A stretch of DNA of 64,000 nt from Thermodesulfobacteriota bacterium (lineage in GTDB: Bacteria; Desulfobacterota_D; UBA1144; Nemesobacterales; JAJCZQ01). Numbering within the stretch: position 1 is the stretch's first letter; the number at the start of each line of letters is the position of its first letter. The notes below the pieces were generated by a model, which worked only from the letters and a program-made list of their open reading frames with translations, made no database searches and had not been told where the DNA came from. The stretch is taken from positions 560,855-624,854 of the forward strand of contig OZ244044.1 of NCBI GenBank assembly GCA_965215275.1. The letters are read 5' to 3'. Made by a program: the position numbers and the translations under genes. Below are positions 2,681 through 39,710 of the stretch, piece by piece.

Positions 2681-2814
2681 ATTTTTTTACAAAAACGCCA
2701 TTGCTGTATTTTTTATGGTTGAAGCACAAAGCATTCCATAATACTTTAATTTTAACAGCAATCAAATTACAGACGTTTTGTCAAGATGGCTAATATTCTG
2801 AAAAAGATGGCGGC

Positions 2815-3142
2815 ATGAGCAAAAAAATCGCAAAGCCTGACTATACAAGACGAAACCACCGAATTTCTTCTCTACACGGCTCCGGAGGGAGGAATAAAAG
2901 TTGAGGTTATTCTGAACAGCGAGACTATCTGGTTAACCCAGCAGCGTATGTCCGATTTGTTTGGAGTAAGTCGCACAAGTATTGGAAGGCATCTAAAAAA
3001 TATCTTTGCAGCAGGAAAATTAGACGAAGACGTGGTATGTGCAGAAATTGCACATACCACTAAGCACGGTGCAATTCCGGGCAAAACTCAAAAAAGATTG
3101 GGTGCGATTTATACCTTGCAATTTGCTCTGACTTGGTGCAAA
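2815..3142 (+). pseudogene. RhuM-family (virulence protein RhuM-like) N-terminal remnant, frameshifted near its start and truncated after ~100 residues
   Basis: An in-frame open stretch 2819..3142 reads DETTEFLLYTAPEGGIKVEVILNSETIWLTQQRMSDLFGVSRTSIGRHLKNIFAAGKLDEDVVCAEIAHTTKHGAIPGKTQ. This matches the conserved RhuM N-terminus (TxDG..K.EV..EnETvWLtQ.QmaELF......I.eHlKNIF.eGEL...s.C.eF..t...G...GKTQ). An ATG at 2815 (MSKKIAKPDY...) is in another frame, suggesting a frameshift. The homology ends where the ATPase begins. Confidence 0.45.
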
Positions 3143-4327
3143 ATGCAAGGTATGTTAAAAAGATGGATTACAAACAGGCTTCAGAGAAATATCGCACGGA
3201 ATCCGGCCGTGGTACTTCTTGGTGCACGTCAAGTAGGTAAAACGACGCTTGCTCAACATATATCTGAAAGCATGAACTCAATATACCTCGATCTGGAAGC
3301 TCAGGAAGATCTATTAAAGCTCAGTGACCCCACCAGTTTTTTAAAAAGTCATAGTGACAAACTTATAATACTTGACGAAATACAGCGTGCACCTGATCTG
3401 TTCATGGTTCTACGCGGACTGATCGATAAGAACCGTCAGCAGGGCCGCAATGCTGCACAGTTTCTTCTGCTAGGTTCAGCATCAATGGATTTGCTACGGC
3501 AATCCTCGGAAAGCCTTGCAGGTCGAATCAGTTACATCGAAATGACCGGTCTTAATGTACTTGAGATTGGTAAGGAAAAACAAAACATCCAGAGCGTATG
3601 GCTGCGCGGAGGATTTCCTATAAGCTATCTCGCACAAGACGATGATATGGCCATGGAATGGCTCGAAAACCTTATACGAACTTATCTGGAACGGGATGTT
3701 CCACAAATGGGTTTTAACGTCTCAGCCAGCAAGTTACGTCGTCTCTGGACAATGCTAGCGCACCTGCAAGGTGAAACGGTTAATGTGAGTAAGCTGGCTG
3801 CAAACCTTGAAGTGGGACGTTCAGCCATAAACCATTACATAGATATCCTTACCAACCTGTTACTGGTCCGGCGCATTGAACCGTGGCACGCCAACATCAA
3901 AAAGAGACTGGTGAGATCACCGCGATATTATGTACGTGATAGCGGCATCCTGCACCGCTTGCTGGGTATTGGAAATTACGATGCGTTGCTGTCCAATCCC
4001 ATACTTGGCAAAAGCTGGGAAGGGTTTGTCGTCGAGAACATCCATTCTGTACTGCCACCACTTGCCGAAACATATTTCTACCGTACATCAGCTGGAGCAG
4101 AAATCGATCTGGTCATCAAAATGCCAAATGCGGAAGTATGGGCTGTGGAAATTAAGCACGGCGTTGCTCCCAAGCTAGGCAAACATTACAGCCAGACGTG
4201 CAACGACGTCGGTGCCACGCATAAATACATCGTCTATGGTGGTGATGATGTATTTACTGTCGGAGATAGCATTACAGTTATTTCCCTGCCAAAGATCATG
4301 GAAAAGCTTATTTTCTGCCAGTCATGA
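3143..4327 (+). CDS. AAA+ ATPase of the COG1373 family (AAA_14 + DUF4143). The ORF is open in frame from 2948 (or 2819) through the RhuM remnant, so it may be a chimeric fusion
   Basis: Walker A AVVLLGARQVGKTTLAQ and Walker B KLIILDEIQRAPDLF are present. The C-terminal half (WHANIKKRLVRSPRYYVRDSGILHRLLGI...EGFVVENI) is typical of DUF4143 and carries a PD-(D/E)xK-like D...EIK core (EIDLV...AVEIKHG). Start ATG at 3143 (MQGMLKRW) was chosen by homology onset. The ORF track gives 2948..4327. Confidence 0.7.
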   Translation: MQGMLKRWITNRLQRNIARNPAVVLLGARQVGKTTLAQHISESMNSIYLDLEAQEDLLKLSDPTSFLKSHSDKLIILDEIQRAPDLFMVLRGLIDKNRQQGRNAAQFLLLGSASMDLLRQSSESLAGRISYIEMTGLNVLEIGKEKQNIQSVWLRGGFPISYLAQDDDMAMEWLENLIRTYLERDVPQMGFNVSASKLRRLWTMLAHLQGETVNVSKLAANLEVGRSAINHYIDILTNLLLVRRIEPWHANIKKRLVRSPRYYVRDSGILHRLLGIGNYDALLSNPILGKSWEGFVVENIHSVLPPLAETYFYRTSAGAEIDLVIKMPNAEVWAVEIKHGVAPKLGKHYSQTCNDVGATHKYIVYGGDDVFTVGDSITVISLPKIMEKLIFCQS

Positions 4328-4486
4328 TGCATTTGAAACATTCAGCGAGGAACAATTTTTGCCAATGCTATATTCCATATGGACTAGTTGTTTTTAGTTT
4401 GTCGGGAATCTCCACCTAACTGGAATAGTTTTTTCACTCTTGTAAATTTATAATATCTATGCTAAAAAACTATTTGGAGACTAACT

Positions 4487-6511
4487 ATGGATGAGTCGGC
4501 TAAAACAGGGGAACAACTGTTTCGAGAAGTTATAAAAGTCAACAACGAATCTGATATTCAAACCCGATTATATACTATTTTGTCTCATATTACGGGACAA
4601 GAGTGGTTAACAGAACATAATTATGGTACTGGACCCATTGATTTGCTCTGTCCTGCTTGGGGGATCGTTATTGAATGCAAGAAACGCGGTTCCGTTGATC
4701 CTAATCTTCCAGGACACAAAGGGAATGAGACTCAAAAAGGTCAACTTGAAAGATATTTATCAGATGTGGAAAAACCTTTATATAAATATCAGTTGGTGGG
4801 TTTTTTAACAGATGGTATCTCTTGGTGGGGATATAATTGGAGCGATTATGAAAGAAAAGCTATCCCACTTATCAATTATCCATCTCGAAAAGATATAAAT
4901 AGCTATGATGAACTCAAGGATTTTATGGAAAATATCCCTGAGTTAAAACAAAATAAATCGTCTGGTTACAAGGTTAAACCCCCTGAAAATCTTGGTGAGT
5001 TACTGTTCGACCCATTGACTAAAAAAATAACAGACATTCAAAGAAAAATGGAACAAAAAAAGGAATTCAAGACAAAGTTGATTCTCTGGGAAAATGTCTT
5101 AAAGGGTTCAGGAATTACTCCACCAGGCACACTGAAAAAATACGAAGTATTCGGATTGCACAGTCTTTTAGTTATTACTTCACGCTTACTGATTGGAATA
5201 TTGAACAATGAAAATGATGTAGAAAACTTGCTTACAACCAGTGGCGATGGTTTTCAGGGATGGCTGTTGGAAACGCATGAAGGCGAAAAATTAATAAAAG
5301 AAAAACTGTATAAGGAATTATTAAAATATGATTGGCAGGGTGTTACAAAAGATATATTAAAAGCAGTTTATCATTCACTTATAGATAAAGAACATCGTAA
5401 AGAGTTTGGAGAATACTATACACCTGATAACTTGGCAGAAATAGTAGTGGAGGAAGTATTAGATGATGACTGGTGCGATAATGCTATAAAACGAGTAGCA
5501 GATATACTTGATAATCCAAAAGAGGCAGATTCATCCCATCTGGGCATGCTTGATCCTTCTTGTGGTTCAGGAACATTTCTCTTTCATGCAGCACAACGTA
5601 TCTATAATAGAATTAGGGAAAAACATAGACACGAATTCCATAGAGCAGCTGAAATTACAGCAAGGCTTGTACACGGAATTGACATACATCCAGTAGCCGT
5701 GGAAATGGCTAAAGCTACTTTGTCTATGGCACTTCCAAATTCAAGGGATTTACATTTACGGGTAATACTGGCTGATGCTATGCAATCAGAAGAAGTTGGA
5801 GCATTGCCACTCGACATTACCATAGACCCATTTGGTAAAAAGGGGTTTATTTTCCCCCGTGCAATCATTACACATAAGAAGGCAAATCAAATTATAGAAT
5901 GTGTTGTATCTGCAGCAGTAAGAGAAGACGAAAAAAAACTAGAACAAGTCAGCTCTTTTGTTGAAGAATCATTAATTAAAAAGTTATATGGTAATCTGGT
6001 TGATTTAATCAGAAATGAGGGTAATCACGTATGGAACTGGTATTTATTGAATATAATAGCAAGTGCCAATTTGAATCGGTATGGAGTGGACCGTATAGTG
6101 GGTAATCCCCCTTGGCTGGTAGCAAATGATACTCCAGAGGGACAAAGAAAAGCTAAAATAGACCGCCTACGTAAAGAAGAAAGTGTTAAACCAAAATTCA
6201 ACAGTTCTGCAAAAGGAGACCTCGCAAGTGTGTTCACGGCACGAGTAACAGGACTGTATGCTTCAAAGGAAGGAACTCGTTATGGATGGATATTACCTGG
6301 GTCAGCTATTATTGGTCAAACTTGGAATAAGTGGCAAGAAGGGATATGGGGACATGCTAAAGTAAAACACGAGTTTGCATGGAGCTTAGATAAAATTGAA
6401 CCTCCTGTTTTTCCGCATTCTCCAAATGGAACCTGTGTTTTTATTGGACAAACCACTTCTCCCCCCCCCCCCCACAAAAAACTATTGTGCAGATATGGGA
6501 AGGTACTCTAG
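4487..6511 (+). CDS. Type IIG (MmeI-like) single-chain restriction-modification enzyme, N-terminal PD-ExK nuclease + gamma-class N6-adenine MTase part; reading frame ends just after a C13 tract
   Basis: Nuclease-like motif GPIDLLCPAWGIVIECKKRG (D...E.K). MTase motif X EYYTPDNLAEIVV, motif I MLDPSCGSGTFLFHA and motif IV IVGNPPWL are present in gamma-class order. GC (~35%) is far lower than the flanks. A stop follows 13 codons after the C13 tract at 6461..6473. Confidence 0.7.
   Translation: MDESAKTGEQLFREVIKVNNESDIQTRLYTILSHITGQEWLTEHNYGTGPIDLLCPAWGIVIECKKRGSVDPNLPGHKGNETQKGQLERYLSDVEKPLYKYQLVGFLTDGISWWGYNWSDYERKAIPLINYPSRKDINSYDELKDFMENIPELKQNKSSGYKVKPPENLGELLFDPLTKKITDIQRKMEQKKEFKTKLILWENVLKGSGITPPGTLKKYEVFGLHSLLVITSRLLIGILNNENDVENLLTTSGDGFQGWLLETHEGEKLIKEKLYKELLKYDWQGVTKDILKAVYHSLIDKEHRKEFGEYYTPDNLAEIVVEEVLDDDWCDNAIKRVADILDNPKEADSSHLGMLDPSCGSGTFLFHAAQRIYNRIREKHRHEFHRAAEITARLVHGIDIHPVAVEMAKATLSMALPNSRDLHLRVILADAMQSEEVGALPLDITIDPFGKKGFIFPRAIITHKKANQIIECVVSAAVREDEKKLEQVSSFVEESLIKKLYGNLVDLIRNEGNHVWNWYLLNIIASANLNRYGVDRIVGNPPWLVANDTPEGQRKAKIDRLRKEESVKPKFNSSAKGDLASVFTARVTGLYASKEGTRYGWILPGSAIIGQTWNKWQEGIWGHAKVKHEFAWSLDKIEPPVFPHSPNGTCVFIGQTTSPPPPHKKLLCRYGKVL
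6461..6473 (+). repeat. Homopolymeric C13 tract followed by A-rich run, at the junction of the two RM reading frames (putative slipped-strand phase-variation switch)
   Basis: Direct count gives cccccccccc ccc at 6461..6473, then acaaaaaa. The ORF1 frame terminates 39 nt downstream. A +1 (C14) or -2 (C11) change restores the full-length ORF. Confidence 0.9.
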
Positions 6512-7371
6512 ATGCTCCAACCATCTCTGAAAAATTCGTCAGAGAATCAAAAAAGTCTTATTATCTTGATAAATTTCGAAGAGGGGCAATGTCATCTCCT
6601 TATGCCCTTTTAATAATAATAAATTCGGAAGAAAAAAAGAACGGTCTTGTAAATGTTCAGTTCAACATAGGAACCAAGACCCCTTGGAAAGGTTTAAATA
6701 TGACAGCAACCGTAGAGAAAGATGCTTTATTATCTATTGTACGCAGTCAAGAACTCAAGGCTTTTAAGACAGAAACTAATAAGACTTTCTTTTTAGCACC
6801 TTTAGAAAAAGGTAAATTACTTTCTCCAGACAGGCAAAAATATAAAGATAACTATCCAAAAACATTAGATTATTGGAAACGGGCAGATAAGATATATAGA
6901 TGTCATCGCTCCAGTAAAGCAGGAGAAACCCTGTTTGATAATCTGGATTGGAAAGGGACTTTATCAACACAACTTGAACCTGCGAAAAAGGAACGTAAGT
7001 TCAAAGTTATATATAACAAATCAGGAAATATCCTACAAGGGGCAATTGTTTCAGGGAAACAAGTTGTCCATGAATCAGCTTATTATCTTGTAACTGATTA
7101 TATGGAGGAAGCTCTATATCTTTGTGGAATTATAAACGCACCTGTTATGCAGGATGTCTGGCAAGAGAGTAAAACATCAAAGATAGCTTTTGATAAAAGT
7201 CCTTGGAGGCATGTTCCTGTTCCCAGATATAAGCCAAATAATAAAGAACATAAGGCAATCGTCAGTGCGGCAAAAGAAGTAGAGCAAGCACAAAATCCAT
7301 CCGACAAACTGGATATATTGAACGAACCGGTTCAAACACTGTTACAAGATTTTCTTTTCAACAGCCCATAA
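6487..7371 (+). CDS. C-terminal (probable target-recognition domain) part of the same Type IIG enzyme, in the +1 frame relative to 4487..6511
   Basis: This frame is open from 6400 and also reads through the poly-C as ...NHFSPPPPQKTIVQIWEG. Adding one C makes a single ~965-aa ORF (...TTSPPPPPQKTIVQIWEGTLDAP...), the size of MmeI-family enzymes. It has the same low GC as the upstream part. The track start at 6487 is GTG; the true product is probably the fused protein. Confidence 0.55.
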   Translation: MQIWEGTLDAPTISEKFVRESKKSYYLDKFRRGAMSSPYALLIIINSEEKKNGLVNVQFNIGTKTPWKGLNMTATVEKDALLSIVRSQELKAFKTETNKTFFLAPLEKGKLLSPDRQKYKDNYPKTLDYWKRADKIYRCHRSSKAGETLFDNLDWKGTLSTQLEPAKKERKFKVIYNKSGNILQGAIVSGKQVVHESAYYLVTDYMEEALYLCGIINAPVMQDVWQESKTSKIAFDKSPWRHVPVPRYKPNNKEHKAIVSAAKEVEQAQNPSDKLDILNEPVQTLLQDFLFNSP

Positions 7372-9526: not shown

Positions 9527-9781
9527 CTAACCATCGGAATCTTTATTGTGATCTGGGTTTCTGCCTTGATTCTTGCGGTAGGTAGCAAGCCGTTCAGCCT
9601 CTTTTTTCTTGGCTCCGTCTTTAGTCATCCGTCTTGATGTAACTTTCATGTGACCGAAATTCTTACCCTCTTTCCGATGCTGTCGCTCGCGTCTGTCTGG
9701 GTCATTGGTTGTGCCAACATAAAGAACCTTATTCCCTTGCTTTAATTCATAAGTAAACGTATCTCGTTTTTTCGCCATCAC
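9527..9781 (-). CDS. Mini GIY-YIG nuclease-domain protein (84 aa)
   Basis: TFTYELKQGNKVLYVGTTNDPDRRERQH fits the GIY-(x10)-YIG...R..xH core. The tail is lysine/arginine-rich. Confidence 0.45.
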   Translation of the reverse strand: MMAKKRDTFTYELKQGNKVLYVGTTNDPDRRERQHRKEGKNFGHMKVTSRRMTKDGAKKKEAERLATYRKNQGRNPDHNKDSDG

Positions 9782-10056
9782 AAAATTCTCCCAAATACGG
9801 TAATCATAACCTTGCAGGAGATAGGGACATCAAAGCCAAATCTCAATCTCCACTTGTCAGTGAAAAAAACGAATAAAATGGCATAATCTTGATCTTCCTG
9901 ATATTTGATTACAAAATTTTTATCATATCAACATATAATTATGGAACCTATAGGAATTATATATAATGTTACTCAAAATTTGATTTCTATAATAAGATAA
10001 AATATTATACAATGACAAGAGGTTAAAATATAAGAAATTAAAAAGATGAACAACCC

Positions 10057-10086
10057 TTCCACCCCCCCCCATCAACCCGGTATAAT
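10057..10086 (+). promoter_or_regulatory. Candidate promoter with a C9 homopolymer in or next to the spacer: poly-C 10062..10070, perfect TATAAT at 10081..10086, ~300 nt upstream of the defence operon
   Basis: Sequence ttccaccccccccc atcaacccgg TATAAT was read directly. The -35 is poor (TTCCAC). The surrounding 9.8..10.1 kb is very AT-rich. Confidence 0.3.
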
Positions 10087-10384
10087 ATAACAAAACACAG
10101 CTGGGGCACTGACTCATGCCCTTTAATAAGTAGCCGCCAGACGACCCCAGAAGTCGCTCCATTTTTCTTGGTAGATAATGACTTTCGCTGGCGTGTATGT
10201 GAGTACGACTGCAATCTTTCCTATTTTACTGACTTTGTTATCAACCGGGTATCCGAAGACCATAGTTTCAATGACCCGGAATACCATCTCTGGTTTAAGG
10301 TCCTCCAAGATCTCCGCAGCATAGAAAACCTGGTTATTGCTCCGGGCAGCAGCACGGACGAACAGGAACGACCAAAGGAGACCT

Positions 10385-13300
10385 ATGCTCAAATTTGAAG
10401 ACATTAAAAAAGACGCTCAAATCCGGGGTCTGGAAGGCGACAAGATCGTCCGGGTCGTCAGTTGTGAACTCGTTGGAACGGATGCCGTCAACATTTTCTA
10501 CGTAGACCCTGATGGTAAACCTGGAACCCAGATGCTGTTCCGTTCGGACGAGTCGCGGTTAGAACAGGCCAAAGCTGGTCGTCCCTGGTCATTTGATGCA
10601 CCGGGCGCTGAATTTAAACTCGGACTGGAAGCCTACCGCATCAGCCTGGCTCATCTGTTTGATCCGATGATGGCGGTACATACGTCCAGCATAGAACCGC
10701 TTCCTCATCAGATATCTGCAGTGTACGAGTCTATGCTGCCACGCCAGCCGCTGCGCTTTGTACTGGCCGATGATCCCGGCTCAGGTAAAACCATCATGAC
10801 CGGGCTTTACATTCGTGAACTGCTGATGCGCTCGGATGCAAAACGCATTCTTATAGTCTCGCCTGGTTTCCTGTCAGAGCAGTGGCAGGATGAACTGCTG
10901 GAAAAATTCGGCCTTCACTTCGAAATATTCAGCCGCGAGAAACAGGAACAATGTGCATCAGGTAACTTCTTCGAAGAGCAGAATCAGCTCATTGCCCGAC
11001 TGGATCAGTTATCCCGCAACAATGACTATCAGGAAAAACTCAAAGTCACCGACTGGGACCTGATCGTGGTGGATGAGGCACACAAGATGTCCGCCCATTA
11101 CTTCGGCAGCACGGTCAAAGAAACCCGCAGGTTCAAACTGGGCAAATTGCTGGGTTCCATAACACGGCATTACCTGCTGGTAACAGCCACCCCGCACAAC
11201 GGCAAGGAAGAAGACTTTCAGTTGTTCATGTCTCTGCTGGATGGCGACCGTTTTTACGGTAAATTCCGTGAAGGTGCACACAAGGTCGACATCGACGACA
11301 TGATGCGCCGCATGGTCAAAGAAAACCTGCGCAAATTCGATGGCACCCCGCTATTTCCTGAGCGCAGAGCCTATACGGCCAATTACGAACTCTCCGATCA
11401 GGAAGCAGCACTTTATGACGATGTGACAGAATACGTGCGCGAAGAAATGAACCGGGCAGACAAACTCGACGATAAGAAGAAAAACACCGTCGGTTTTGCA
11501 CTGACCCAGTTGCAACGCCGCCTGGCATCCAGCCCAGAGTCCATATATCAATCCCTCAAGCGCCGCCACAGAAAGCTGGAAGACCAACTCAAAGAGATGA
11601 AACTGGTCGCCAGGGGTCGATCGATCAATAAAAAGGGGGTTGCTGAAACCCTGGATGAATATGTCGTCAGAAAGCAGATAGATGTTCCCGACAATCTCGA
11701 CGAAGCCTACGATGAACTTACCGGCGAAGAATACGAAACTTTTGCTGAAGAAGTAGTGGACCAGTCCACCGCTGCTGCCACCATTCCAGAACTCGAAGCC
11801 GAGATCAGTATTTTGAAGAAACTGGAGCCCAAGGCGCACGAGGTCGTGCAATCTGGCAGCGACAAAAAATGGGAGGAGCTTTCCAGCCTGTTACAGGACT
11901 CTCCGGAAATGGGTATCAGCGTCCCACGGAACAAATCAGGTAATCGACTTAAACTAATCATCTTCACGGAATACAGAGATACTCTGACCTATCTGGTAGA
12001 CCGCATAAGAGGTTTGATCGGCCGCCCCGAGTCCGTGGTATCCATACAGGGCGGAACCAACCGTGATGACCGGCGCAAAATACAGGAAGAGTTCCGCAAC
12101 AATCCCGATGTACTGATCATGGTTGCCACCGATGCTGCTGGTGAAGGTGTGAACCTGCAAAATGCCCATCTGATGGTCAACTACGACCTGCCGTGGAATC
12201 CCAATCGCCTGGAGCAGCGTTTTGGTCGCATCCACCGTATCGGTCAAACTGAGGTCTGTCACCTCTGGAACATTGTCGCAGCCAAGACCCGCGAAGGTGC
12301 GGTATTTCAAAAACTGCTGGACAAACTGGACGTGGAGCGCGAAGCACTGGGTGGCAAAGTTTTCGATATTCTGGGTGAAGCCTTTGAAAATATCTCACTC
12401 AAGGATTTGTTGCTGGAAGCTATCCGCTATGGAGAGCAGCCAGAGGTCAAAGCCAAACTCTATAAGGTTATTGATAACGCACTGGACACCGCCCATCTGA
12501 AAGAGATTATTAAACGTAACGCACTGGTAGAGCAAAGCATCGGACTTGATCAGTTCTACGCAGTTAAAGAAGAGATGGAAAAGGCAGAGGCACGCAAGCT
12601 GCAGCCCTATTTCATCCGAGCCTTTTTTACCGAGGCCTTCGGTACCCTCGGTGGCAAGATGCACAACAGGGAAACCGGCCGCTTTGAAATCCGCCATGTG
12701 CCCGCATCCATTCGCGAGCGTGATCGGGTAATCGGTGAAACCCTCACCCCTGTACTGAAAAAATACGAACGCGTCTGTTTCGAGAAACAACACCTGAGCA
12801 TTCAAGGTAAGCCCATGGCCGACTTACTGCACCCGGGTCATCCGCTCATGCAATCAGTAACCGATATAGTACTTGAAGCACACAGAAAAAAACTGAAACA
12901 AGGTTCGGTGCTAGTTGACCCCAATGATAACGGCATTGAGCCAAAAGTACTCTTCATGATCGACCACAGCCTGCGTCAAAGTGTCAATGGAACAAGGAGC
13001 GGAAAAGATGTTGTCGTTTCCCGTCGATTGCAGTTTGTCGAAATTAATCAGCACGAAGAGGTCGTTAATGCAGGCTGGGCACCTCACCTTGATCTGCAGC
13101 CTATCGATGACAACGACCATGGTCTGGTTAAGGATGTTTTAGACGCACCATGGATCACCGACAACCTTGAAACACTGGCACTCAAGCATGCGTCAACCCA
13201 CCTAGTGCCAGAACACTATCAAGAGGTAAAAACACGACGCGAGGAACAAGTCGATAAGATCCATGCCGCTGTACGTGAACGCCTGGTTAAAGAGATCGGC

Positions 13301-13963
13301 TACTGGTCCGGGCGTTATATAAAACTCTCTGATGACGTTAAGGCTGGAAAGCAGCCACGTGTGCAGCCCGAGATGGCCAAGCGGCGATATGAAGAACTCA
13401 CCGCCAGGCTAGAACAACGGGAGAAAGAACTCATCGCCATGCGCAGCGTGGTTTCCGGCAGTCCAGTCGTAATAGGTGGCAGCCTGATCATCCCGCAGGG
13501 CATGCTGGCACAGCACAAAGGTGAGACCAATTTCACTGCTGATGCAGCCTCTCGTTCCCGTATTGAGCAAATCGCCATGGATGCCGTCATTAAAACGGAA
13601 AAAGCCTTTGGACATGAAGTCAAGAACATTGCAGCGGACAAATGCGGCTGGGACGTCACCGCAAGACCACCTGCTGTTAACGGCAAGCTGCTGGAGGACC
13701 GACATATTGAGGTCAAAGGCAGAGCTAAAGGCCAGAGCACAATAACGGTAAGCCGTAATGAGATCATATATGGGCTAAATCAAGCCGAAAAATTCATCCT
13801 GGCCATTGTGATCGTAGACGGCGATAGCTATGAAGAACCTTACTACATCAAATATCCGTTTTCTCAGGAACCGGGTTTTGGGGTGGCGAGTATCACTTTC
13901 GACCTAAAGGACTTGATATCCAAGGCAGTGGCACCAGAACAAACATTACAGGTGGTGGAATAA
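10385..13963 (+). CDS. SNF2/SWI2-family helicase with C-terminal DUF3883 (restriction-endonuclease-like) domain; first gene of the candidate defence operon
   Basis: Motif [15 protein letters not shown], motif [19 protein letters not shown], and the helicase-C block [16 protein letters not shown]...[22 protein letters not shown]. The C-terminus CGWDVTAR...[10 protein letters not shown]...ITVSRNEI...ILAIVIVDG is typical of DUF3883. GGAG RBS aaaggagacctATG at 10385. The track start 10337 adds 16 aa with no RBS. Confidence 0.8.
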
Positions 13964-16819
13964 ATGAGCACAAAAATTAAAACTCCAAAGAAACTCATTG
14001 AGGTGGCACTGCCATTAGATGATATTAGTTCAGCAAGTATTAAGGAAAAAAACGGATCCATAAAAGGGCATCCACGTGCACTTCATTTATGGTGGGCAAG
14101 ACGACCTTTGGCAGCAGCCAGGTCCATTCTGTTTGCACAACTGGTAAACGACCCTGGTGGATCATGTGGACATTATCCAGGTATGACGAAGGAAAAAGCC
14201 AGGATAGAGCGCGAAAGACTGTTTGATATCATGAGGCAATTAGCCAAATGGGAAAACATTAATAACGATGATCTTCTAAAAACCGCTCGACAGGAAATAC
14301 TGAAAAGTTGGGCCTCAACATGCAAAATAACAGGTGACGATCCAAATGTTATGCCTCCGGTCCTTGATCCTTTTGCCGGTGGTCATTCCATACCGATCGA
14401 AGCACAGAGATTAGGATTAAAGACCCTAGGTACTGACCTAAACCCGGTAGCAGTTACCATTGGCAAAGCATTAATTGAAGTTCCTGCCCGTTTCCATGAC
14501 AAGGAACCCATTGGTCCTCTTCCTGAAGGTTTAAAACAAAATGATCTACTCGACCAATGGAGTGGCACACAGGGTTTGTCCGAGGATATAAAAAGGTACG
14601 GCACGATGCTTTATGATCTGGCAAAGCAGAAGATCGGTCATCTTTATCCAGCCATAAAACTGCCTAAAGAACTTGGTTCAACTGAATCTAGCGTTATAGC
14701 ATGGATCTGGGCCAAGACAACTAAGTGTCCTAATCCAGCTTGTGGTGCAGAAGTGCCATTAATCAGGTCATTCGAACTTTCTGAAAAGAAAGGAAAAAAG
14801 GCAAGAATAGAGGCCGTGATAAACAGAGACACCGATCCTCCATCAATTTCTTTTAAGGTCCATATGGACGATCAGCCCGCCGAAGCAAGAAACATAAGCA
14901 GAGCAGGTGCGAAATGCCTGTGTTGTGGTTCTCTTGTACCACTGAAGAGTATTAAAAAACATGGTAAAGAAGGGGGCATCGGTACTCGACTTATCGCTAC
15001 TGTGTGTAATACAGAAAGTGGCCGAGTTTATGTGACACCAGACGCAACACAGGAAGAAACAGCTAAATCCGTTTCACCTCATAATTATCCTTATGATTAT
15101 CCTTCATCACAATTACCTGATAAAGCTATAAGTTTCAATGTCCAAATTTATGGCATTACCAGACACTCACAACTGTTTACAGATAGACAATTACTGCTAT
15201 TGGGGACTTTGTTCGAACTCCTTACTGATATTAGAGAACAGGTCTTAAAAGATGCAATAAGCAGTGGTTTTGAGCATGGGAATAGACTTTCAGAAGGTGG
15301 AACCGGTGCTGAAGCTTACGCTGATGCTATTATACTTTATCTTTCACTTTCTATTTCCCAATGCACGAGTTATCACTGTATAAATGCTCGTTGGGTAAAA
15401 CATAGCCAGCGTATTGCTCATGCCTTCGGACGCCAAGCAATCGTCATGAGTTGGGATTTTGCCGAGAGCAACCCTTTTTATGGACCTTTAACCATTACCA
15501 CTGCAGTCAAGCGGGTAGCTTCATCTTTGGCGAACGTGGACCCATATACATGTGGTTCGGTTTCACAACGAAATGCTAATAGTAATAACGACAAATTAAA
15601 GGACGTGATAATTTCTACCGACCCACCATACTATAACAACATTGGGTATGCAAACCTGTCTGACTTTTTTTACGTGTGGCTTCGCCTTGGGTTAAGAGAT
15701 GTTTTTCCAAGACTTTACTCAACCATTACAGTCCCAAAATCAGATGAATTAGTTGCTGAACCATATAGACATGGAGGCAAAAAGAATGCTGAATCCTTTT
15801 TTTTGGAAGGAATGACCGGAGCCATGTCAAATATGGCAGAGATATCCCATCCCGCATTCCCAGTAACAATTTACTACGGCTTTAAACAGTCCGAATCAAG
15901 TTCGGCAGGAACTGCTTCAACCGGATGGGATACCTTCTTGCAAGCCGTCATTTCTGCAGGTTTTACCATTACCGGAACATGGCCACTTAAGACGGAGAGT
16001 CCCACAAGGCTTCTGAGCCAAGGAACTAATACATTAACCTCATCTATCGTATTGGTATGTCGAAAAAGATCTACACACACCGAAGCAATTTCCAGACGTC
16101 AATTCCAGAGGGAATTACGTGAGGAGATGTCTGAAGCATTAGAAGAAATGATCGGTGGAAGCGAAGGCTCATCGCCAGTAGCTCCCGTAGATCTGGCACA
16201 AGCCGCAATTGGTCCTGGCATGGCAATCTTCTCCAGATACTCAGCGATCTTGAACCAAGATGGCTCACCTATGACCGTTCATGAAGCCTTAATTTTAATT
16301 AATCGAGAGATCACTGAATATCTAAACCCTGAAAGCGGCAGGTTTGATGAAGATACCTTGTTTTGCTCTTCATGGTTTGATCAGTACGGCTGGTCAGAGG
16401 GTAAATTCGGAGAAGCCGACACCTTGGCTCGAGCAAAGGGTACGTCCGTAGATGGCGTAAGGGATGCTGGTGTAATAGAATCAGGAGCTGGAAAAGTTCG
16501 ATTATACCGCTGGGAAGAGTATCCAGCAGAGTGGAACCCTTATCAAGACAATCGCACTCCCGTTTGGGAGGCACTCCATCATATAATCCGTGTCCTTAAC
16601 CAAAAAAGTGAATCAGATGCAGGTTTTTTACTTGCTCGTATGCCAGAGCGTGGTGAATCCATTCGCCAGCTTGCTTATCACCTCTACACACTATGTGAGC
16701 GTAAGAACTGGGCTGAGGAAGCCAGGGCTTATAACGAGTTAATTTCTGCCTGGCATGACATTGTCGCTGCATCACACAACGTTGGACATATCGGATCGCA
16801 AACCGAACTTGAGATTTAA
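13964..16819 (+). CDS. DUF1156 (COG1743) Zn-ribbon-containing DNA methyltransferase (N6-adenine/N4-cytosine type)
   Basis: N-terminus PKKLIEVALPLDDISSASIKEKNGSIKGHPRALHLWWARRPLAAARSILFAQL is the DUF1156 signature. SAM motif VLDPFAGGHSIPIEAQRLGL. Catalytic motif IV VIISTDPPYYNNIGYANLSDFFYVW. Zn-ribbon CPNPACGAEVP...CLCCGSLV. Its ATG abuts the stop of the helicase (gaaTAAATGagc). Confidence 0.8.
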   Translation: MSTKIKTPKKLIEVALPLDDISSASIKEKNGSIKGHPRALHLWWARRPLAAARSILFAQLVNDPGGSCGHYPGMTKEKARIERERLFDIMRQLAKWENINNDDLLKTARQEILKSWASTCKITGDDPNVMPPVLDPFAGGHSIPIEAQRLGLKTLGTDLNPVAVTIGKALIEVPARFHDKEPIGPLPEGLKQNDLLDQWSGTQGLSEDIKRYGTMLYDLAKQKIGHLYPAIKLPKELGSTESSVIAWIWAKTTKCPNPACGAEVPLIRSFELSEKKGKKARIEAVINRDTDPPSISFKVHMDDQPAEARNISRAGAKCLCCGSLVPLKSIKKHGKEGGIGTRLIATVCNTESGRVYVTPDATQEETAKSVSPHNYPYDYPSSQLPDKAISFNVQIYGITRHSQLFTDRQLLLLGTLFELLTDIREQVLKDAISSGFEHGNRLSEGGTGAEAYADAIILYLSLSISQCTSYHCINARWVKHSQRIAHAFGRQAIVMSWDFAESNPFYGPLTITTAVKRVASSLANVDPYTCGSVSQRNANSNNDKLKDVIISTDPPYYNNIGYANLSDFFYVWLRLGLRDVFPRLYSTITVPKSDELVAEPYRHGGKKNAESFFLEGMTGAMSNMAEISHPAFPVTIYYGFKQSESSSAGTASTGWDTFLQAVISAGFTITGTWPLKTESPTRLLSQGTNTLTSSIVLVCRKRSTHTEAISRRQFQRELREEMSEALEEMIGGSEGSSPVAPVDLAQAAIGPGMAIFSRYSAILNQDGSPMTVHEALILINREITEYLNPESGRFDEDTLFCSSWFDQYGWSEGKFGEADTLARAKGTSVDGVRDAGVIESGAGKVRLYRWEEYPAEWNPYQDNRTPVWEALHHIIRVLNQKSESDAGFLLARMPERGESIRQLAYHLYTLCERKNWAEEARAYNELISAWHDIVAASHNVGHIGSQTELEI

Positions 16820-16834
16820 AGGAGGATAAGAACA

Positions 16835-19669
16835 ATGACGATCAAACCCTGGCGTGAAATTATAAAACCTCACAAAGATGTGCTCGAGGGTACGTTCAAG
16901 CAATCTGAATTTGCAGCCGATATCTCTCAGGTGGCCTCCTGTACAGCAACCGATGAATACCAAGACCCAGAGAAGTTCTTTGCCCGCACATTCATTACGG
17001 AGGGCATGCGCCTGTTATTAATTTCCGTTGCTCAGCGACTGGCTGGTCAGGGTGGCGACCCTGTTATACAACTGCAAACCGCTTTTGGTGGTGGCAAGAC
17101 CCATACCATGCTGGCCGTGTTCCATATGGCTGATCGAAAAGTCAGCACCGATAAACTGGCAGGTATCCCTACTGTCCTTGATGAAGCAGGTATTTCTCAA
17201 TTGCCTCGTGCCAAGGTCGCCGTACTGGATGGTATTAAACTCTCCCCAAGCCAACCGCTTGATCACGATGGCCTGACCGTTAATACCCTGTGGGGTGAAC
17301 TGGCCTGCCAACTTCTAGGCAAAGCTGGATATAACAAAGTAGCACAAGCGGATCAGGATGGAACATCACCAGGTAAAGACGTTCTGGTGGATCTGCTGAA
17401 CGAAGCATCTCCATGTGTGGTACTGATCGATGAACTCGTTGCTTTCATCCGTCAGTTCGATATTGGTAAGCAGTTCAATGCCGGAACTTTCGACAGCAAT
17501 ATCTCGTTCATCCAGGCACTCACTGAAGCTATGAAATCGGTTCCTGATGCCATTCTTTTAGCCTCCCTACCCGCGTCTGATCTTGAGGTCGGTGGTAACA
17601 TGGGTCAAAGAGCATTGAACTCTCTTGAGCAATATTTTGCACGTGTGGAATCCGTCTGGAAACCGGTTGCCACCGAAGAAGCTTTTGAGATCGTCAGACG
17701 CCGTCTGTTCGATACCGTTGACGACAGCACTGAACTTGAAAACGTATGTAAGCGTTTCGCTGATCTCTACCGGGACAACAGCGACAAGTTCCCATCGGAT
17801 ACCCAGTCCAGTCACTATCAGGACCGACTACGTCAGTCCTATCCTATTCATCCGGAAATCTTTGACCGGCTGTATGAAGACTGGTCCACACTGGATAAAT
17901 TCCAGCGTACCCGTGGCGTATTGCAATACATGGCAATAGTTATCCATCACCTGTGGAATTCTGACAACCGTGACGCACTCATCATGCCTGGTTCTATTCC
18001 AATGTATGACGACAATGTAAGAACCAAGAGCATTCATTATCTGCCGCAGGGATGGGAACCTGTTATTGAGAAAGAAATTGATGGACCAAGATCAGAACCC
18101 TTTAATATTGACGGTCATGACACCCGGTTTGGCAGCGTACAGGCTGCTCGTCGTGCCGCACGTACTATTTTCCTTGGCAGTGCGCCATCGACTGGTGACC
18201 AGATGATCCGCGGGATCAAGGCAGATCAAATCCTGCTGGGAACTTTGCAGCCGGGACAGACGGCTGGTGTATTTGAAGACGTCCTGCGCCGCTTACGTGA
18301 CCGATTGCACCACCTCTACTCGAAAGAGGAGCGTTTATGGTTCGATACCAAACCGAACCTTCGGCGCGAAATGGAAAGCCGTAAGCAAAATATCAATGAT
18401 CAGAAGGAGGTACAACCACAACTCAAGGCTCGGGTCACCGGAGTCTTTGGGCGTAATAATTCCTTTGCCGGTATCCATGTATTCACACCATCCGCTGATG
18501 TGCCGGACGAATGGGGAACTGGTCCAAGGCTGGTCGTACTGTCACCAAGATCATCATACAGCCGTGGTGATGATGACAATATGGCCTGTGCTACCGAAGA
18601 GATACTACACAAACGTGGTGAACATCCCCGTCAGAAACAGAACCGTTTGATCTTCCTTGCTCCAGACTACGACGTTGTTAGCCGGTTAAGTGATCAGGCA
18701 AGAACCTATCTGGCATGGAAATCCATCCTTGATGATTTCCAGTCGGATAAACTGGTCTATCAAAGTAATCAGCTTGCCGAGGTTAAACGTGCCGTAGAAG
18801 GTGCCGAGCAAACGCTTCAGCGATTAGTCCGTGAAACCTACAAATGGCTGATCTGCCCCGTTGTGGAAGAACCCGTCCGTGGCAAACAACCACTTAAGTG
18901 GGAGACCATCTTGGTATCCCCCACCGCACAGAACCTTGTGCAGGAGATCGAAAACAAACTCCGCGAAGAAGATTGGCTGATATCAGAATGGTCACCCATA
19001 CACCTACGCAACATACTAAACAAGTGGTATTTCAAGGATGGCGTCACAGAGGTCAGTGCACTTAAGGTTTACCAAGACTGCTGCAATTACCTCTATTTGC
19101 CCCGACTACAAAATGACCAAGTGTTAAAGCGTTCCATTGAGCAAGGGCTGAAAACGGAAGACTTCTTTGGTTTCGCAAGAGGCAAGGAAGAAGGCAAATA
19201 CCTCGGATTTGTCTTTGGTAACAACACCATGGTTACTCTGGATGATTCAGAATTACTAATAGAACGTGATGCTGCCGCTGCGTACAAAGAAAGTATTAAG
19301 CCGCCACAGTCAGAACCAGATACCACGGGAGGTAGTGATCAGCCTGATAATACTATTCCACCAAGCGGAGGAACTGCCTCACAACCTGGAGATAAAGTAT
19401 CAGCAAAACCTACTCCGGGAGCAATGGTTAAAAAAGAGTTTTATGGCACGACCACGCTGGAACCTGTCGGTGCAACCATGGAGTTTCAGAAAATCGTGGA
19501 TGAAGTGGTCCAGCAATTTACTTCGAAACTGGGTGTTGAGGTCACAATTACAGTATATATCACAGCTAAATCCCGTGATGGTTTTGATGAATCCATGCAA
19601 CGTTCGATCAAGGAAAACTGTAACGTGCTCCAGTTCAGTAGTGCGGAATTTGAGGAAGGTGAGCAATAA
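16835..19669 (+). CDS. DUF499 (COG1483) AAA+ ATPase
   Basis: N-terminus [33 protein letters not shown]...[15 protein letters not shown] is the DUF499 signature. Walker [15 protein letters not shown] and Walker [15 protein letters not shown] aaggaggataagaacaATG. Confidence 0.8.
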
Positions 19670-19926
19670 TTGACTTTGCCTCGCTCTTAAATACTACAGA
19701 CAAGATCAATAAGGTGGATAAAATCACAAAAAAGCCGTTTAGCAGACAGGAGCAAAGGAACCAAAGTTTATTTGTTTTACAAATACACATAAATTAGAAT
19801 CAAAGAGAACATCTCCTCCACCATTACTGGAACTGTTAATATTCTATACAAGTGCACATCATGTTCTGGGATTGAGCATGGTAAAAACAATGAAAGACAC
19901 AGATAATCAGCAGTAAAGAGAATAGT

Positions 19927-20682
19927 GTGAACAAAAAAAACGTGACAAATAACAAGGTTTTAATGCCTGCTATTGAAAAGGTGGAACAATCTGATTCTGT
20001 CTATCCCAGTCGCTTGCTCACCGTATTGAAAAACAAAGCACCAACAACACTTTATTTACAAGGGAATATCAGCCTTCTGGAAATGGATGGAATCGGATTT
20101 TCCGGGTCCAGAAATTCCAGTCAAAATGGAATAGATACAGTCAGAGACTGTGCTGAGCAAGCTGCCAATGCCGGGCTCGCCGTAATCTCCGGCAATGCCG
20201 CAGGCATAGACCTTGAAGCACATTATCACGCGCTCTCCGCGAATGGCTCGACCATTCTCGTTATTCCAGAAGGAATTAACCATTTCCGAATAAAGCGTGC
20301 ACTGGTACCCGTCTGGGATTGGGAGCGTACACTCGTAATCAGTCAATTCAACCCTGACGATGCATGGAAAAATTATCGTGCTATGAAACGTAATCAGGTG
20401 ATCATTGGTTTAAGCAAAGCAATGATCGTCATCGAGGCTGGAGAAAAAGGCGGGACCATGAATGCCGGGATGGAGACACTTAAACGTGATACCCCTCTCT
20501 ACGTGGCTGAATACCAGGATATGTCAGTTGATGCTCGGGGCAACAAAAAACTACTTGAGCTTGGTGGAAAGCGGCTGGCTCGCAGCCGTTCAACAGTCCG
20601 TGCGAATATGAAAAATGTCTTTGATGATGTTACTAGAGACCCTGCAAACCAATCCCATCAAGATCAGACAGGACTTATTTAG
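19927..20682 (+). CDS. DprA/Smf-like (SLOG-superfamily Rossmann) protein, short form without obvious C-terminal wHTH
   Basis: DprA core GIGFSGSRNSSQNGIDTVRDCAEQAANAGLAVISGNAAGIDLEAHYHALSANGSTILVIPEGINHF...NQVIIGLSKAMIVIEAGEKGGTMNAGMETLKRDTPLYV. Track start is GTG at 19927; ATG at 19963 (MPAIEK) is an alternative. It is separated from the DUF499 gene by a 257-nt AT-rich spacer. Confidence 0.65.
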   Translation: MNKKNVTNNKVLMPAIEKVEQSDSVYPSRLLTVLKNKAPTTLYLQGNISLLEMDGIGFSGSRNSSQNGIDTVRDCAEQAANAGLAVISGNAAGIDLEAHYHALSANGSTILVIPEGINHFRIKRALVPVWDWERTLVISQFNPDDAWKNYRAMKRNQVIIGLSKAMIVIEAGEKGGTMNAGMETLKRDTPLYVAEYQDMSVDARGNKKLLELGGKRLARSRSTVRANMKNVFDDVTRDPANQSHQDQTGLI

Positions 20683-20752: not shown

Positions 20753-20845
<93 letters not shown>

Positions 20846-26668: not shown

Positions 26669-27298
26669 ATGACCGATAAAAGACCTTATACTCGCGAGAA
26701 ACTTATTTATAAAAGATTTGTCTCACGTTTTAGTCCTACTAGTGTAGAGAGATATGTCCCTAACAGGCGAGGTTTAGAAGGTTTATTTGTAATCAGAGAG
26801 GTCGACCTGTGGAACAAGGGTATTGAAGAAATATATATAGTCGTTGATGCTTCTTCATCGTTTGATGAAAAGAAATTATCATCTGTTATTCACCACATTT
26901 ACAAACTTTTAGTCAGAGACAGAGTTGACGTTAAATGGAATATACTGATCTTTGCCACCAAGGCTGAACTGATCAAAAAAGTTAAAATAAAAAACGCTGA
27001 TACCGTCTGTGAGATCATTAATGAAAACCGGGATAAAGTTGGCAGTACTGCTGAATTTGCACCAGTCGAAAGCATTTTAAGGAAGAATTTTGGAAATATA
27101 ACAGGGATAATTTTTGTTAGTGACTACGATTTTACAGAAGAGGACAGAAAGAATTTTTATCAGTTCGTTATTAAAAAATCACTTGCTGGATTTAAAGTTC
27201 CAATGCTGGTAATTGAGGTCGGTGGTGCCGTTCAGGAAGAAGTTATACAGACTTTCAGTAAAAAATCACACATAGACCTTTGCATTTTTAACTATTGA
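26669..27298 (+). CDS. Hypothetical protein, low GC; weak vWA-like MIDAS motif
   Basis: IYIVVDASSSF fits DxSxS. No other recognisable motif. AT-rich codon usage differs from its neighbours. Confidence 0.3.
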   Translation: MTDKRPYTREKLIYKRFVSRFSPTSVERYVPNRRGLEGLFVIREVDLWNKGIEEIYIVVDASSSFDEKKLSSVIHHIYKLLVRDRVDVKWNILIFATKAELIKKVKIKNADTVCEIINENRDKVGSTAEFAPVESILRKNFGNITGIIFVSDYDFTEEDRKNFYQFVIKKSLAGFKVPMLVIEVGGAVQEEVIQTFSKKSHIDLCIFNY

Positions 27299-35316: not shown

Positions 35317-36902
35317 TTAAGTTTAACCGATCTCAATATATTTTCTTCCAGGTCGGTCGCTTCCCGTGCTGCACTGGCCCTGTCCGCCAAAAGCTTATTG
35401 AAGGCAGGTCCTATCCTGTCAAGCGTAGGCTCTATCTTATCAAGAAAAGGTTTTGGATAAACGCCCATTATTATGATCATCACGGCTATCGGGAGCATGG
35501 ACACGGATTCCCTTACGTTCATATCCGAGAGTCCCCTGTTCTGTCCTTTATCCAGTGGACCGAACATGACCCTCTGATAAGCCCAGAGCATATACACTGC
35601 CCCCAGCACGAGCCCGGTCGCTCCAAAGGCCGCAAGGACGTAACTTTCCTTGAATACTCCAAGCAGGATCAGAAACTCTCCAATAAAACCATTAAGGAGA
35701 GGCAGTCCTATGGAGGCAAGCATCGCGAGCATAAAAAACGCCGCAAACACCGGCATTACCTTCGCAATACCGCCAAAATCCACGATCTTTTTAGTATGGC
35801 GACGATCGTATAACATCCCGACCAGCAAGAACAACGCACCGGTCGAAAGTCCGTGAGACACCATATGATAGACAGCTCCTTCCACTCCCTGTAAGTTCAA
35901 GACGAATATACCGAGCATGATCAATCCGAGATGACTCACGCTTGAATAGGCAACCAGTTTTTTCAAGTCTTTCTGTGCAAAAGCGACCATAGCAGCATAG
36001 ATCACACCTATGATGGCAATTATGGATAAAATGGGGACGTAAGCGATCGTTGCCTCAGGAAAGAAAGGTATCAGAAACCTTAAAAAACCATACACTCCCA
36101 TTTTAAGCAGAACACTTGCAAGGATCACGCTCCCGGCCGTTGGAGCTTCAACGTGTGCATCGGGAAGCCACGTGTGGAACGGGAACATCGGCACTTTGAT
36201 CGCAAACGCGAGAAAAAAGGCAAAAAAGCAAAGGCCTTGAGGACTTAAGAACCCTGAGAACGGCAGCGTTACGTTGTACAGGTCGTATATGTTCATTGAA
36301 GCAAAACCCATCTGCCCTTTATGTGCGAAGTAAAGATAGAGGATCGCAACAAGCATCAGACCGCTTCCCAGTGCCGTGTAAATAAAAAACTTTATCGCCG
36401 CGTAAATCCTTCTCTCTGTACCCCATATACCTATAATGAAGTACATCGGTATAAGCACCGCTTCCCAGAATACAAAGAAAAGTATCAGATCGAGTGCCGC
36501 AAAGGTTCCGATCAAAGCAGTTTCCAGAAGGAGGATAAGGCTCAGCATTTCCCCCAGTCCTTTCTGAATGGAGTTCCATGTACACAAAAGCGTAACAGGG
36601 ACTATGAAGGTCGTAAGGAGTACCAGAAGAAGACTTATGCCATCCAGACCCACGTGATAACTGATCCCCAGATCGGTCAGCCACTCCACTTTCTGTTCAA
36701 ACTGGATACCACCAAATGAACTTTTAAAATTGATGAATAAAGGAATTGAGATCAAAAACTCGATCGCGGAAACGGCAAACGCTCCAATTTTTATGTATTG
36801 CTCCGACTTTTTGAACAACAGAGAGCAAAACAGAATAAAAACGATCCCGATCAAAGGGAAAAAGATCAGCAGGCTAAGATTTACCGGAAAAAATGCGTCC
36901 AA
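35313..36902 (-). CDS. nuoM: Complex I NuoM/ND4-family proton-pumping antiporter-like subunit (529 aa, ~14 TM)
   Basis: Polytopic membrane protein with the conserved NuoM/MnhD-type core (...WLPDAHVEAPTAGSVILASVLLKMGVYGFLRF...). No other nuo genes are adjacent in the window. Confidence 0.65.
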   Translation of the reverse strand: MDAFFPVNLSLLIFFPLIGIVFILFCSLLFKKSEQYIKIGAFAVSAIEFLISIPLFINFKSSFGGIQFEQKVEWLTDLGISYHVGLDGISLLLVLLTTFIVPVTLLCTWNSIQKGLGEMLSLILLLETALIGTFAALDLILFFVFWEAVLIPMYFIIGIWGTERRIYAAIKFFIYTALGSGLMLVAILYLYFAHKGQMGFASMNIYDLYNVTLPFSGFLSPQGLCFFAFFLAFAIKVPMFPFHTWLPDAHVEAPTAGSVILASVLLKMGVYGFLRFLIPFFPEATIAYVPILSIIAIIGVIYAAMVAFAQKDLKKLVAYSSVSHLGLIMLGIFVLNLQGVEGAVYHMVSHGLSTGALFLLVGMLYDRRHTKKIVDFGGIAKVMPVFAAFFMLAMLASIGLPLLNGFIGEFLILLGVFKESYVLAAFGATGLVLGAVYMLWAYQRVMFGPLDKGQNRGLSDMNVRESVSMLPIAVMIIIMGVYPKPFLDKIEPTLDRIGPAFNKLLADRASAAREATDLEENILRSVKLK

Positions 36903-36950
36903 ATTTTGGTCCTCTTGGGTTAATGTGCGAAAAAACAGTTCAATTATACT

Positions 36951-38789: not shown

Positions 38790-38814
38790 TTCATTCTCCT
38801 TACTTTCATAAAAA

Positions 38815-39558: not shown

Positions 39559-39633
39559 AGATAAACTAACCTAAACTTACCCGTAACTTGACATACTTTA
39601 TCTATCAAATACACTCTAAAAAGTATTTTCAGG

Positions 39634-39710
<77 letters not shown>

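Follow-up and report, generated by a model that had tools for sequence, protein, structure and literature searches.

Hma (helicase, methylase, ATPase) was named by Payne et al. in 2021, from 1,638 instances in 26 phyla (PMC8565338). About 1,500-2,400 genomes or taxa contain the system, and in many phyla its three genes are inherited together, as one tight operon. Later work from the same group as the 2021 study reported that approximately 63% of Hma loci hold other defence genes between the hma genes. A comparative study (Nucleic Acids Research 2026, PMC12839542) traced the neighbourhood to notes of 2013 and 2020, and renamed Hma as Type-1 of the DUF499-centred bacteriophage exclusion (BREX)-related (BR) systems, with a model resembling restriction-modification (RM). 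Type-1 consists of the triad in its plain form, and its helicase bears an additional, active PD-(D/E)xK nuclease at the C-terminus; HmaA also has an N-terminal TUDOR domain and an inactive REase domain, HmaB has an HTH triad at its C-terminus, and HmaC ends in an RRM (PMC12839542). Here we analyse a window of 64,000 nucleotides (positions 560,855 to 624,854 of contig OZ244044.1, Thermodesulfobacteriota bacterium, assembly GCA_965215275.1; coordinates below are those of the window), in which three genes at 10385-19669 resemble this triad and are followed by a DprA-like gene.

In the Halomonas meridiana system, HmaA alone protects Escherichia coli against phage T4, and this protection needs the Snf2 domain together with residues D1084, E1104, K1106 and E1121 (PMC11232893). 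The isolated nuclease domain of this HmaA nicks supercoiled plasmid, and protection collapses at a multiplicity of infection (MOI) of 10, which the authors ascribe to a non-canonical abortive infection (Abi) mechanism (PMC11232893). Propagation of T4 in a host overexpressing HmaB left the sensitivity of the phage to the Halomonas system unchanged, and 15-20% of HmaA homologues occur without hmaB or hmaC. The systems closest to the DprA-like gene are PsyrTA (RqlHI) and ShosTA, toxin-antitoxin defence systems that combine a phosphoribosyltransferase (PRTase)-domain toxin with a DprA-like antitoxin. ShosT perturbs purine and phosphoribosyl pyrophosphate (PRPP) metabolism, and ShosA counteracts ShosT without binding it, acting via single-stranded DNA (ssDNA) and RecA.

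The window very probably contains an intact Hma operon followed by the DprA-like orphan of a separate PRTase/DprA-like module, the PRTase gene of which has been destroyed. The genes of the triad are:

10385-13963, + strand: hmaA, encoding a Swi2/Snf2 helicase with a C-terminal NOV_C (DUF3883) PD-(D/E)xK nuclease, 1192 aa
13964-16819, + strand: hmaB, encoding a DUF1156-type DNA methyltransferase of the N6-adenine class, 951 aa
16835-19669, + strand: hmaC, encoding a DUF499 AAA+ (ORC/Cdc6-like) ATPase, 944 aa

A preliminary description, made from the DNA letters, had reported three large co-directional genes, the first two translationally coupled and the third placed behind a strong ribosome-binding site, and this arrangement was confirmed. 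The hmaA stop abuts the hmaB start in the sequence TAAATG (13961-13966), and the 15 nt between hmaB and hmaC contain the ribosome-binding site AAGGAGG. Alignment of the HmaA profile from position 1 onwards identifies the ATG at 10385 (after AAAGGAGA), and not the TTG at 10337, as the start of hmaA. No internal stop occurs in the three open reading frames (ORFs) or in that of the DprA-like gene (19927-20682).

Profile searches bore out the domain calls of that description, and the three domains on which its interpretation turned (DUF1156, DUF499 and DUF3883) were all assigned. The Pfam matches were SNF2-rel_dom, Helicase_C and NOV_C (1e-19) for the hmaA product, DUF1156 (1e-22) for that of hmaB, and DUF499 (2e-34) for that of hmaC, where the N-terminal DUF499 signature begins at residue 4. 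Against PADLOC, HmaA scored 2110 bits (protein 1-1187 to positions 1-1175 of a 1176-position profile), HmaB 1336 and 1270 bits over its full length, and HmaC 1537 bits (profile 1-941 of 941). The layout is also that of Hma, with the three genes present once each, on one strand, and adjacent or nearly so. The locus is assigned to Type-1 rather than Type-2 because NOV_C is present, and because the helicase carries no Pfam-detectable PLDc/HKD domain, no DUF3780 gene is matched by Pfam in the locus, and HmaC has no Pfam or PADLOC match to HEPN; in contrast, Type-2 loci of relatives do show the PLD domain on the helicase and the DUF3780 gene. Judged by these matches, bases 10385-19669 are an intact Hma system, that is, a Type-1 DUF499-centred BREX-related system, which is already known and not new. 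The preliminary description had correctly taken the helicase/DUF1156/DUF499 triad for a predicted BREX-like, methylation-based defence system. The triad is neither unnamed nor novel: it matches the PADLOC Hma models, and the system has been described several times.

Three other assignments were considered and rejected. For the methylation-associated defence system (MADS), to which the preliminary description had suggested a possible mapping, no mad model appears among the best 25 matches listed for HmaA, all 15 for HmaB or both for HmaC; a weak PADLOC match to mad2 (7e-13) belongs to the neighbouring Type IIG gene only. For BREX, no match to PglZ, BrxA, BrxB, BrxC, BrxL or PglW was found in the ten ORFs scanned between 2948 and 20682. 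For DISARM (defence island system associated with RM), neither DrmB nor DrmC was found; HmaA matches the DrmD and DrmA profiles via the common Snf2 core alone, and its NCBIfam DrmD score of 376 falls under the cut-off of 610.

The helicase, methyltransferase and Walker motifs quoted in the preliminary description are all present in the sequence. HmaA contains GSGKT132, DEAH230, GWDV1088 and IEVKG1108, and its catalytic nuclease residues D1090, E1109, K1111 and E1126 are all intact. HmaC has a Walker A motif of the deviant form FGGGKT (GGGKT85) and the Walker B motif LIDE197. In HmaB, motif I (DPFAGG135) and motif IV (DPPY553) are separated by a large insert that bears two cysteine pairs; these are CPNPAC (Cx4C, residue 255) and CLCC (residue 318), and not the two CxxC zinc-ribbon pairs previously described.

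The closest public relative is a locus from a metagenome-assembled genome (MAG), here termed L001, with 94-96% DNA identity. Measured against it, the ratio of nonsynonymous to synonymous substitution rates (dN/dS) of the three hma genes is 0.12-0.24, which argues that they are maintained under purifying selection. HmaB is the least conserved Hma protein between close relatives (89% vs 96%; window 13964-16819 vs L001 2751-5609), and its amino-acid differences from L001 fall mostly in residues 150-500, the insert between motifs I and IV. This insert is where a target-recognition domain would be expected, and the differences look as if specificity were diverging. In another relative, L089, the position of hmaB (3323-6250) is called as four genes (234, 140, 99 and 447 aa), only the first of which matches DUF1156; hmaA, hmaC and the PRTase/DprA-like pair of that locus appear intact.

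Downstream of hmaC lie two further features:

19705-19916, + strand: remnant of a PRTase-like (PsyrT/ShosT/ComF-like) partner pseudogene, delimited by aligning the DNA with the L001 gene (9160-9987), which is intact and encodes 275 aa
19927-20682, + strand: gene for a DprA-like (PsyrA/ShosA-like) Rossmann-domain protein, 251 aa, GTG start, intact

The DprA-like protein matches Pfam DNA_processg_A (3e-41) and the PADLOC profiles for PsyrA (181 bits, 8.9e-54) and ShosA (115 bits, 1.1e-33), and in a sequence search of the PDB its best match was DprA (3uqz, 4e-16), with ShosA also matched (9vzo, 1.4e-11). Its scores lie under both NCBIfam dprA cut-offs (126.7 vs 191 for TIGR00732; 83 vs 495 for NF008007). 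The matches are confined to residues 78-238 of the 288-residue 3uqz and to positions 75-244 of the 374-position NF008007; because they fall inside the longer chains and models, the flanking parts of full DprA have no counterpart in the 251-aa protein. A canonical DprA/Smf was rejected on these equivalog scores together with gene context. The protein belongs to a conserved family of approximately 250 aa, and 39 columns are invariant across an alignment of the family (A1) that includes it. Relative to L001 the gene has a dN/dS of 0.30, from few substitutions, which is looser than for the hma genes and still constrained. An exact-sequence look-up of the protein returned no record.

Rather than being a plain spacer, the 257 nt that separate hmaC from the DprA-like gene hold the remnant of the PRTase gene. 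Bases 19670-19818 align with L001 9125-9274 at 76-77% identity, covering in L001 35 nt upstream of the partner start and the first ~38 codons of the gene, and bases 19852-19921 align at 97% with L001 9926-9995, which comprises the last ~20 codons and a short spacer. Approximately 650 nt of the core of the gene are gone, including the PRPP loop. What remains has ATC in place of the ATG start (19705-19707) and a 1-nt deletion after codon 9, followed by a premature TAG. In L001, approximately 660 extra AT-rich bases (L001 8465-9124) lie between hmaC and the partner gene. By analogy with toxin-antitoxin pairs, the DprA-like gene of the window would be an antitoxin-like orphan whose PRTase neighbour was destroyed; loss of the toxin from such a pair would be expected to give this pattern. 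The preliminary description had proposed it as a potentially novel accessory component; it is no stand-alone accessory but one half of a conserved PRTase + DprA-like pair, the other half of which is pseudogenised here. At another locus of the family, L054, a 46-aa piece of the partner (9766-9903) lies upstream of an intact DprA-like gene. Loss of the toxin with retention of the antitoxin may be recurrent, with the window and L054 as its two instances.

The conservation of the pair was assessed in 79 loci fetched from species-representative genomes. The DprA-like protein encoded at 56 of these is at least 44% identical to that of the window, and 53 of the 56 have at least 900 nt of upstream DNA; a full-length partner homologue lies directly upstream on the same strand in 49 of the 53. 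In the closest relatives the DprA-like gene is always preceded, after a gap of 13-15 nt, by a gene of 275-290 aa that has no Pfam assignment. The PRPP loop of the partner is invariant (DD.YQSG, in LIDDKYQSGTT). PADLOC gives matches to the C-terminal domain of PsyrT (7e-9, positions 532-687 of 689) and to ShosT (4e-5), and the Pfam Pribosyltran and NCBIfam PRTase models remain below threshold. Because sequence searches of the PDB gave weak or non-significant matches at the PRPP loop (best E 0.0086 with a single sequence and 0.045 with a profile), a fold search was needed to settle the identity of the partner. An AlphaFold model built with 54 homologues was predicted with high scores (pLDDT, the predicted local distance difference test, 95; pTM, the predicted template modelling score, 0.92), and its best matches among solved structures were ComF of Helicobacter pylori and three entries for ShosT, ahead of generic type-I PRTases. 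According to this model, the partner is a PRTase-fold protein of the ComF/ShosT-like kind.

The association of the pair with DUF499 systems was compared across 11 contexts, comprising the window gene and genes encoding proteins at least 73% identical to the window DprA-like protein. In 7 of these 11 closest contexts the pair lies at the 3' end of a DUF499 system, which may be Type-1 or Type-2. This recurrence is a minor new point. The contexts are:

3' end of a Type-1 Hma locus: the window, L001-3, L004 and L089; also L007, where HmaC alone is visible upstream
3' end of a Type-2 BR locus, after its Mrr-like gene: L086 (Ca. Sedimenticola endophacoides) and L087/88
no DUF499 system directly upstream: L005, L006/L090, L008 and L009

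The order of the Type-2 loci (L086 1-10756, L087 1-10756) is DUF499, DUF3780, DUF1156, PLD-Snf2 helicase, Mrr-like nuclease gene and then the pair. In L004 and L089 the partner start and the hmaC stop share an 8-nt overlap, and in L005 a DUF499 fragment of 553 aa lies approximately 4 kb downstream on the other strand. The link between the DprA-like gene and the triad, as first proposed, therefore holds in part: the pair recurs 3' of DUF499 systems in the closest relatives, but in the wider family only 1 of the 79 representative loci (L007) adjoins Hma. A metagenome scan with HmaC yielded a single locus, L085, and so gives no share of Hma loci with the pair as seen from the Hma side; this locus (63% HmaC identity) has embedded genes but is without the pair. 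The main text of two comparative Hma/BR papers makes no mention of DprA or a PRTase beside these systems. Hma and BREX loci are reported hotspots for unrelated defence cassettes, and the Halomonas genome table lists a PsyrTA inside a BREX locus (PMC11232893). The simplest reading is that the pair is one of the various defence cassettes that land at DUF499/BREX loci, in which case the PRTase + DprA-like module would have been appended to the 3' end of hmaC in the lineage of the window. A scan for promoters and terminators between 9.5 and 21.5 kb found no more sites than in shuffled sequences, and is uninformative on read-through from hmaC into the DprA-like gene.

In the RM-like model, HmaB would mark host DNA through N6-methylation of adenine, within a motif that its variable insert recognises; HmaC, as an ORC/STAND-like AAA+ ATPase, would assemble or license the complex on unmarked DNA; and HmaA would translocate via its Snf2 motor and nick or cut with its C-terminal PD-(D/E)xK domain. 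Among these steps, that of HmaA is the one with experimental support, by way of its Halomonas homologue. Several observations weigh against an intact RM-like operon followed by the orphan of an unrelated module. Halomonas hmaA alone sufficed for protection, which sits poorly with a division of labour of the RM kind, and growth of T4 in the HmaB-overexpressing host did not alter its sensitivity. The DprA-like gene is still constrained (dN/dS 0.30; 39 invariant columns) and adjoins DUF499 systems in 7 of the 11 closest contexts. Its partner family is no clean member of ShosT or PsyrT, given the weak matches, the missing RecQ domain and an N-terminal domain of its own of approximately 120 aa, and the toxin and antitoxin roles of the family are putative, being drawn from analogy. 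The two results on T4, together with the collapse of protection at MOI 10 and the homologues that occur without hmaB or hmaC, would suit an alternative in which HmaA is a self-sufficient helicase-nickase providing an Abi-like or dormancy-type defence, while HmaB and HmaC regulate it or act independently. However, T4 DNA is glucosyl-hydroxymethylated and so is a poor probe of protection by adenine methylation. Moreover, the triad is inherited jointly, as a tight operon, in many phyla, and HmaB keeps its DPPY/DPFAGG core while its insert is the most variable part, as expected of a specificity domain. We regard a self-sufficient HmaA as possible, if somewhat doubtful. It is far harder to credit that the whole block is a decaying island in which Hma itself is non-functional. 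The surroundings do show damage (a frameshift in the Type IIG gene, a PRTase gene reduced to a pseudogene and 2.9 kb of ORF-less DNA at the left end) and the relatives stem from symbiont-type MAGs, but each of the three hma ORFs has its full length, all the catalytic motifs checked are retained, and the dN/dS values are 0.12-0.24, so that decay of the triad seems very unlikely.

The origin of the DprA-like gene likewise admits other explanations. The protein might be a true Hma accessory, for example loading RecA for repair of nicks that HmaA makes in self DNA, or sensing phage ssDNA. Such a role would be in keeping with the position of the gene directly after hmaC on the same strand, with the occurrence of the pair 3' of both types of DUF499 system and the overlap of the partner with the hmaC stop in L004 and L089, with the intactness and constraint of the orphan, and with the binding of ssDNA and RecA by ShosA. 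Against this, Hma adjoins the gene in a single one of the 79 family representatives, whereas the PRTase partner is rarely missing; Hma loci of comparable HmaC identity can do without the pair (L085); these loci are known to attract unrelated cassettes; and the dN/dS rests on few substitutions. An accessory role is therefore improbable in our judgement. We would also give little credence to a broader proposal, in which the PRTase + DprA-like pair is a dedicated back-up or repair module of DUF499-centred systems, recruited 3' of Type-1 and Type-2 loci, with the DprA-like half perhaps kept after toxin loss because it serves Hma through RecA-dependent nick repair or ssDNA sensing. Least probable of all, and by any measure a slim chance, is that the gene is the housekeeping DprA/Smf of natural transformation lying fortuitously beside the island: the strong Pfam match and the best PDB match to a true DprA point that way, but the equivalog scores fall short of their cut-offs, the 251 aa cover part of the longer DprA chains and models, and the family is nearly always paired with a PRTase-like gene in variable, defence-rich contexts.

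The right-hand end of the variable block is marked by a tRNA gene, 72 nt downstream of the DprA-like gene:

20755-20845, - strand: tRNA-Ser(GGA), found by ARAGORN and Rfam

Beyond it follow a cytochrome c gene, a tRNA-Leu gene and housekeeping genes common to the window and L001. The suggestion of a tRNA-bounded island is supported by half, at the right border with its tRNA-Ser: no repeat of the 3' end of the tRNA-Ser (att-type) occurs elsewhere in the 64-kb window, and no recombinase-type Pfam family was found among the ORFs scanned, many window ORFs being outside that scan. Over the whole window, Rfam detected three tRNAs and nothing else. To the left of hmaA is a GIY-YIG gene (9527-9781), preceded on its own left by small ORFs that by eye are of membrane or metal-binding type. 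The adjacent Type IIG RM gene named in the preliminary description is present (4487-7371) but split by a frameshift into two overlapping ORFs in different frames, 4487-6511 and 6487-7371; the nuclease-helicase that had also been named as context was not identified. The reading frame of the Type IIG gene breaks at a C13 tract (6461-6473), which looks like either an on/off switch for phase variation by strand slippage or an error in sequencing the homopolymer. Two other G/C runs of at least 8 occur in the 64 kb. A C9 run (10062-10070) lies in AT-rich intergenic DNA approximately 315 nt upstream of the hmaA start, and might affect expression.

Leftward of the Type IIG gene, an AAA_14/DUF4143 ATPase matches the PADLOC candidate PDC-S01. 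The first ~50 residues of its ORF (2948-3150) match the C-terminal ends of PADLOC PDC-S05 models; they probably derive from an upstream gene, a remnant of which has become fused in frame, and the ATPase itself is likely to start further in. In the first 2.9 kb of the window (1-2900, 50% GC), neither strand has a listed ORF longer than 128 aa, the list excluding ORFs that run off the left end of the window, and there is no Rfam match. This segment looks like decayed coding sequence.

Other differences between the window and L001 were noted. L001 has an extra N6_N4 methyltransferase gene and an IS1595 transposase gene beside the tRNA region (11435-14104), and a Csx12/Cas9-like gene of 1648 aa from 19446, shortly beyond the point at which the common sequence stops (L001 19397, window 26653); at the corresponding position the window has an ORF of 209 aa (26669-27298). 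Elsewhere in the window, a low-GC patch (34-39%) at 36900-39600 contains a gene of the PDDEXK_4 nuclease family (38815-39558, - strand) and two ORFs without a family match, adjoins a tRNA-Met gene (39634-39710), and may be a second small insertion. On the - strand, 42741-49019 encodes a protein of 2092 aa with a subtilase domain, a proprotein-convertase P-domain and approximately 15 He_PIG Ig-like repeats, and this gene includes a G9 run (44717-44725).

Taken together, these results add one more intact Hma/Type-1 BR locus, nothing new in kind, the nearest relatives of the lineage being MAGs of marine sulfur-oxidiser or symbiont type. They correct the annotation of the triad, which is Hma and neither MADS nor new, and of the supposed DprA accessory, which is the remnant of a PsyrTA/ShosTA-like module. 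They also draw attention to a helicase-less PRTase + DprA-like family (approximately 275 + 250 aa), the partner of which is weakly matched by PADLOC and which recurs beside DUF499 systems in one clade. The compact Hma copy, free of embedded genes, would be a convenient construct for work on HmaB methylation and on the roles of HmaC.

Compared with Type-3 BREX and DISARM, the locus shares the proposed methylation-based logic and several PADLOC matches (HmaA to BrxHII, 288 bits, and to DrmD, 383 bits; HmaB weakly to PglXI). It differs in that, beyond the Snf2 core, the ten locus ORFs scanned give no match to PglZ, BrxA, BrxB, BrxL, DrmA, DrmB or DrmC, and in two features specific to Hma, the active nuclease at the C-terminus and the DUF1156 head. 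The similarity to BrxHII, DrmD and PglXI is confined to helicase and methylase cores held in common, and stays under the curated cut-offs. The PRTase/DprA-like pair of the relatives resembles ComFC + DprA, as a PRTase-fold protein paired with a DprA-fold protein, the best fold match of the former being H. pylori ComF and the best sequence match of the latter being DprA; it departs from them in its defence-island contexts, in its sub-cut-off dprA score and in having nothing that links it to competence genes. With PsyrTA and ShosTA it has in common that the DprA-like protein is encoded directly after a PRTase-domain protein, and the fold search with the partner placed ShosT crystal structures among the best matches. 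The partner, at 275-290 aa, nevertheless lacks the RecQ helicase domain found in PsyrT, resembles ShosT weakly in sequence and adds an N-terminal domain of its own; the DprA-like protein is shorter than the profiles (approximately 250 aa vs 398 for PsyrA and 303-327 for ShosA), and in the window the system is incomplete, its toxin-like gene being a pseudogene. HmaA of Halomonas meridiana has the same architecture as that of the window, and its D1084, E1104, K1106 and E1121 (PMC11232893) correspond to D1090, E1109, K1111 and E1126; that system comes from another host lineage and has Septu embedded between hmaA and hmaB, and the window copy is known from sequence. The closest likeness is to Hma/Type-1 BR systems at large, with the same three full-length proteins encoded on one strand in a tight operon, without a DUF3780 gene or HKD domain. 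The window copy shows no substantial difference from these; it is set apart by the absence of the embedded genes found in approximately 63% of Hma loci, by an HmaC without the N-terminal HEPN that many Type-1 HmaC proteins bear (PMC12839542), and by the PRTase/DprA module appended at its 3' end.

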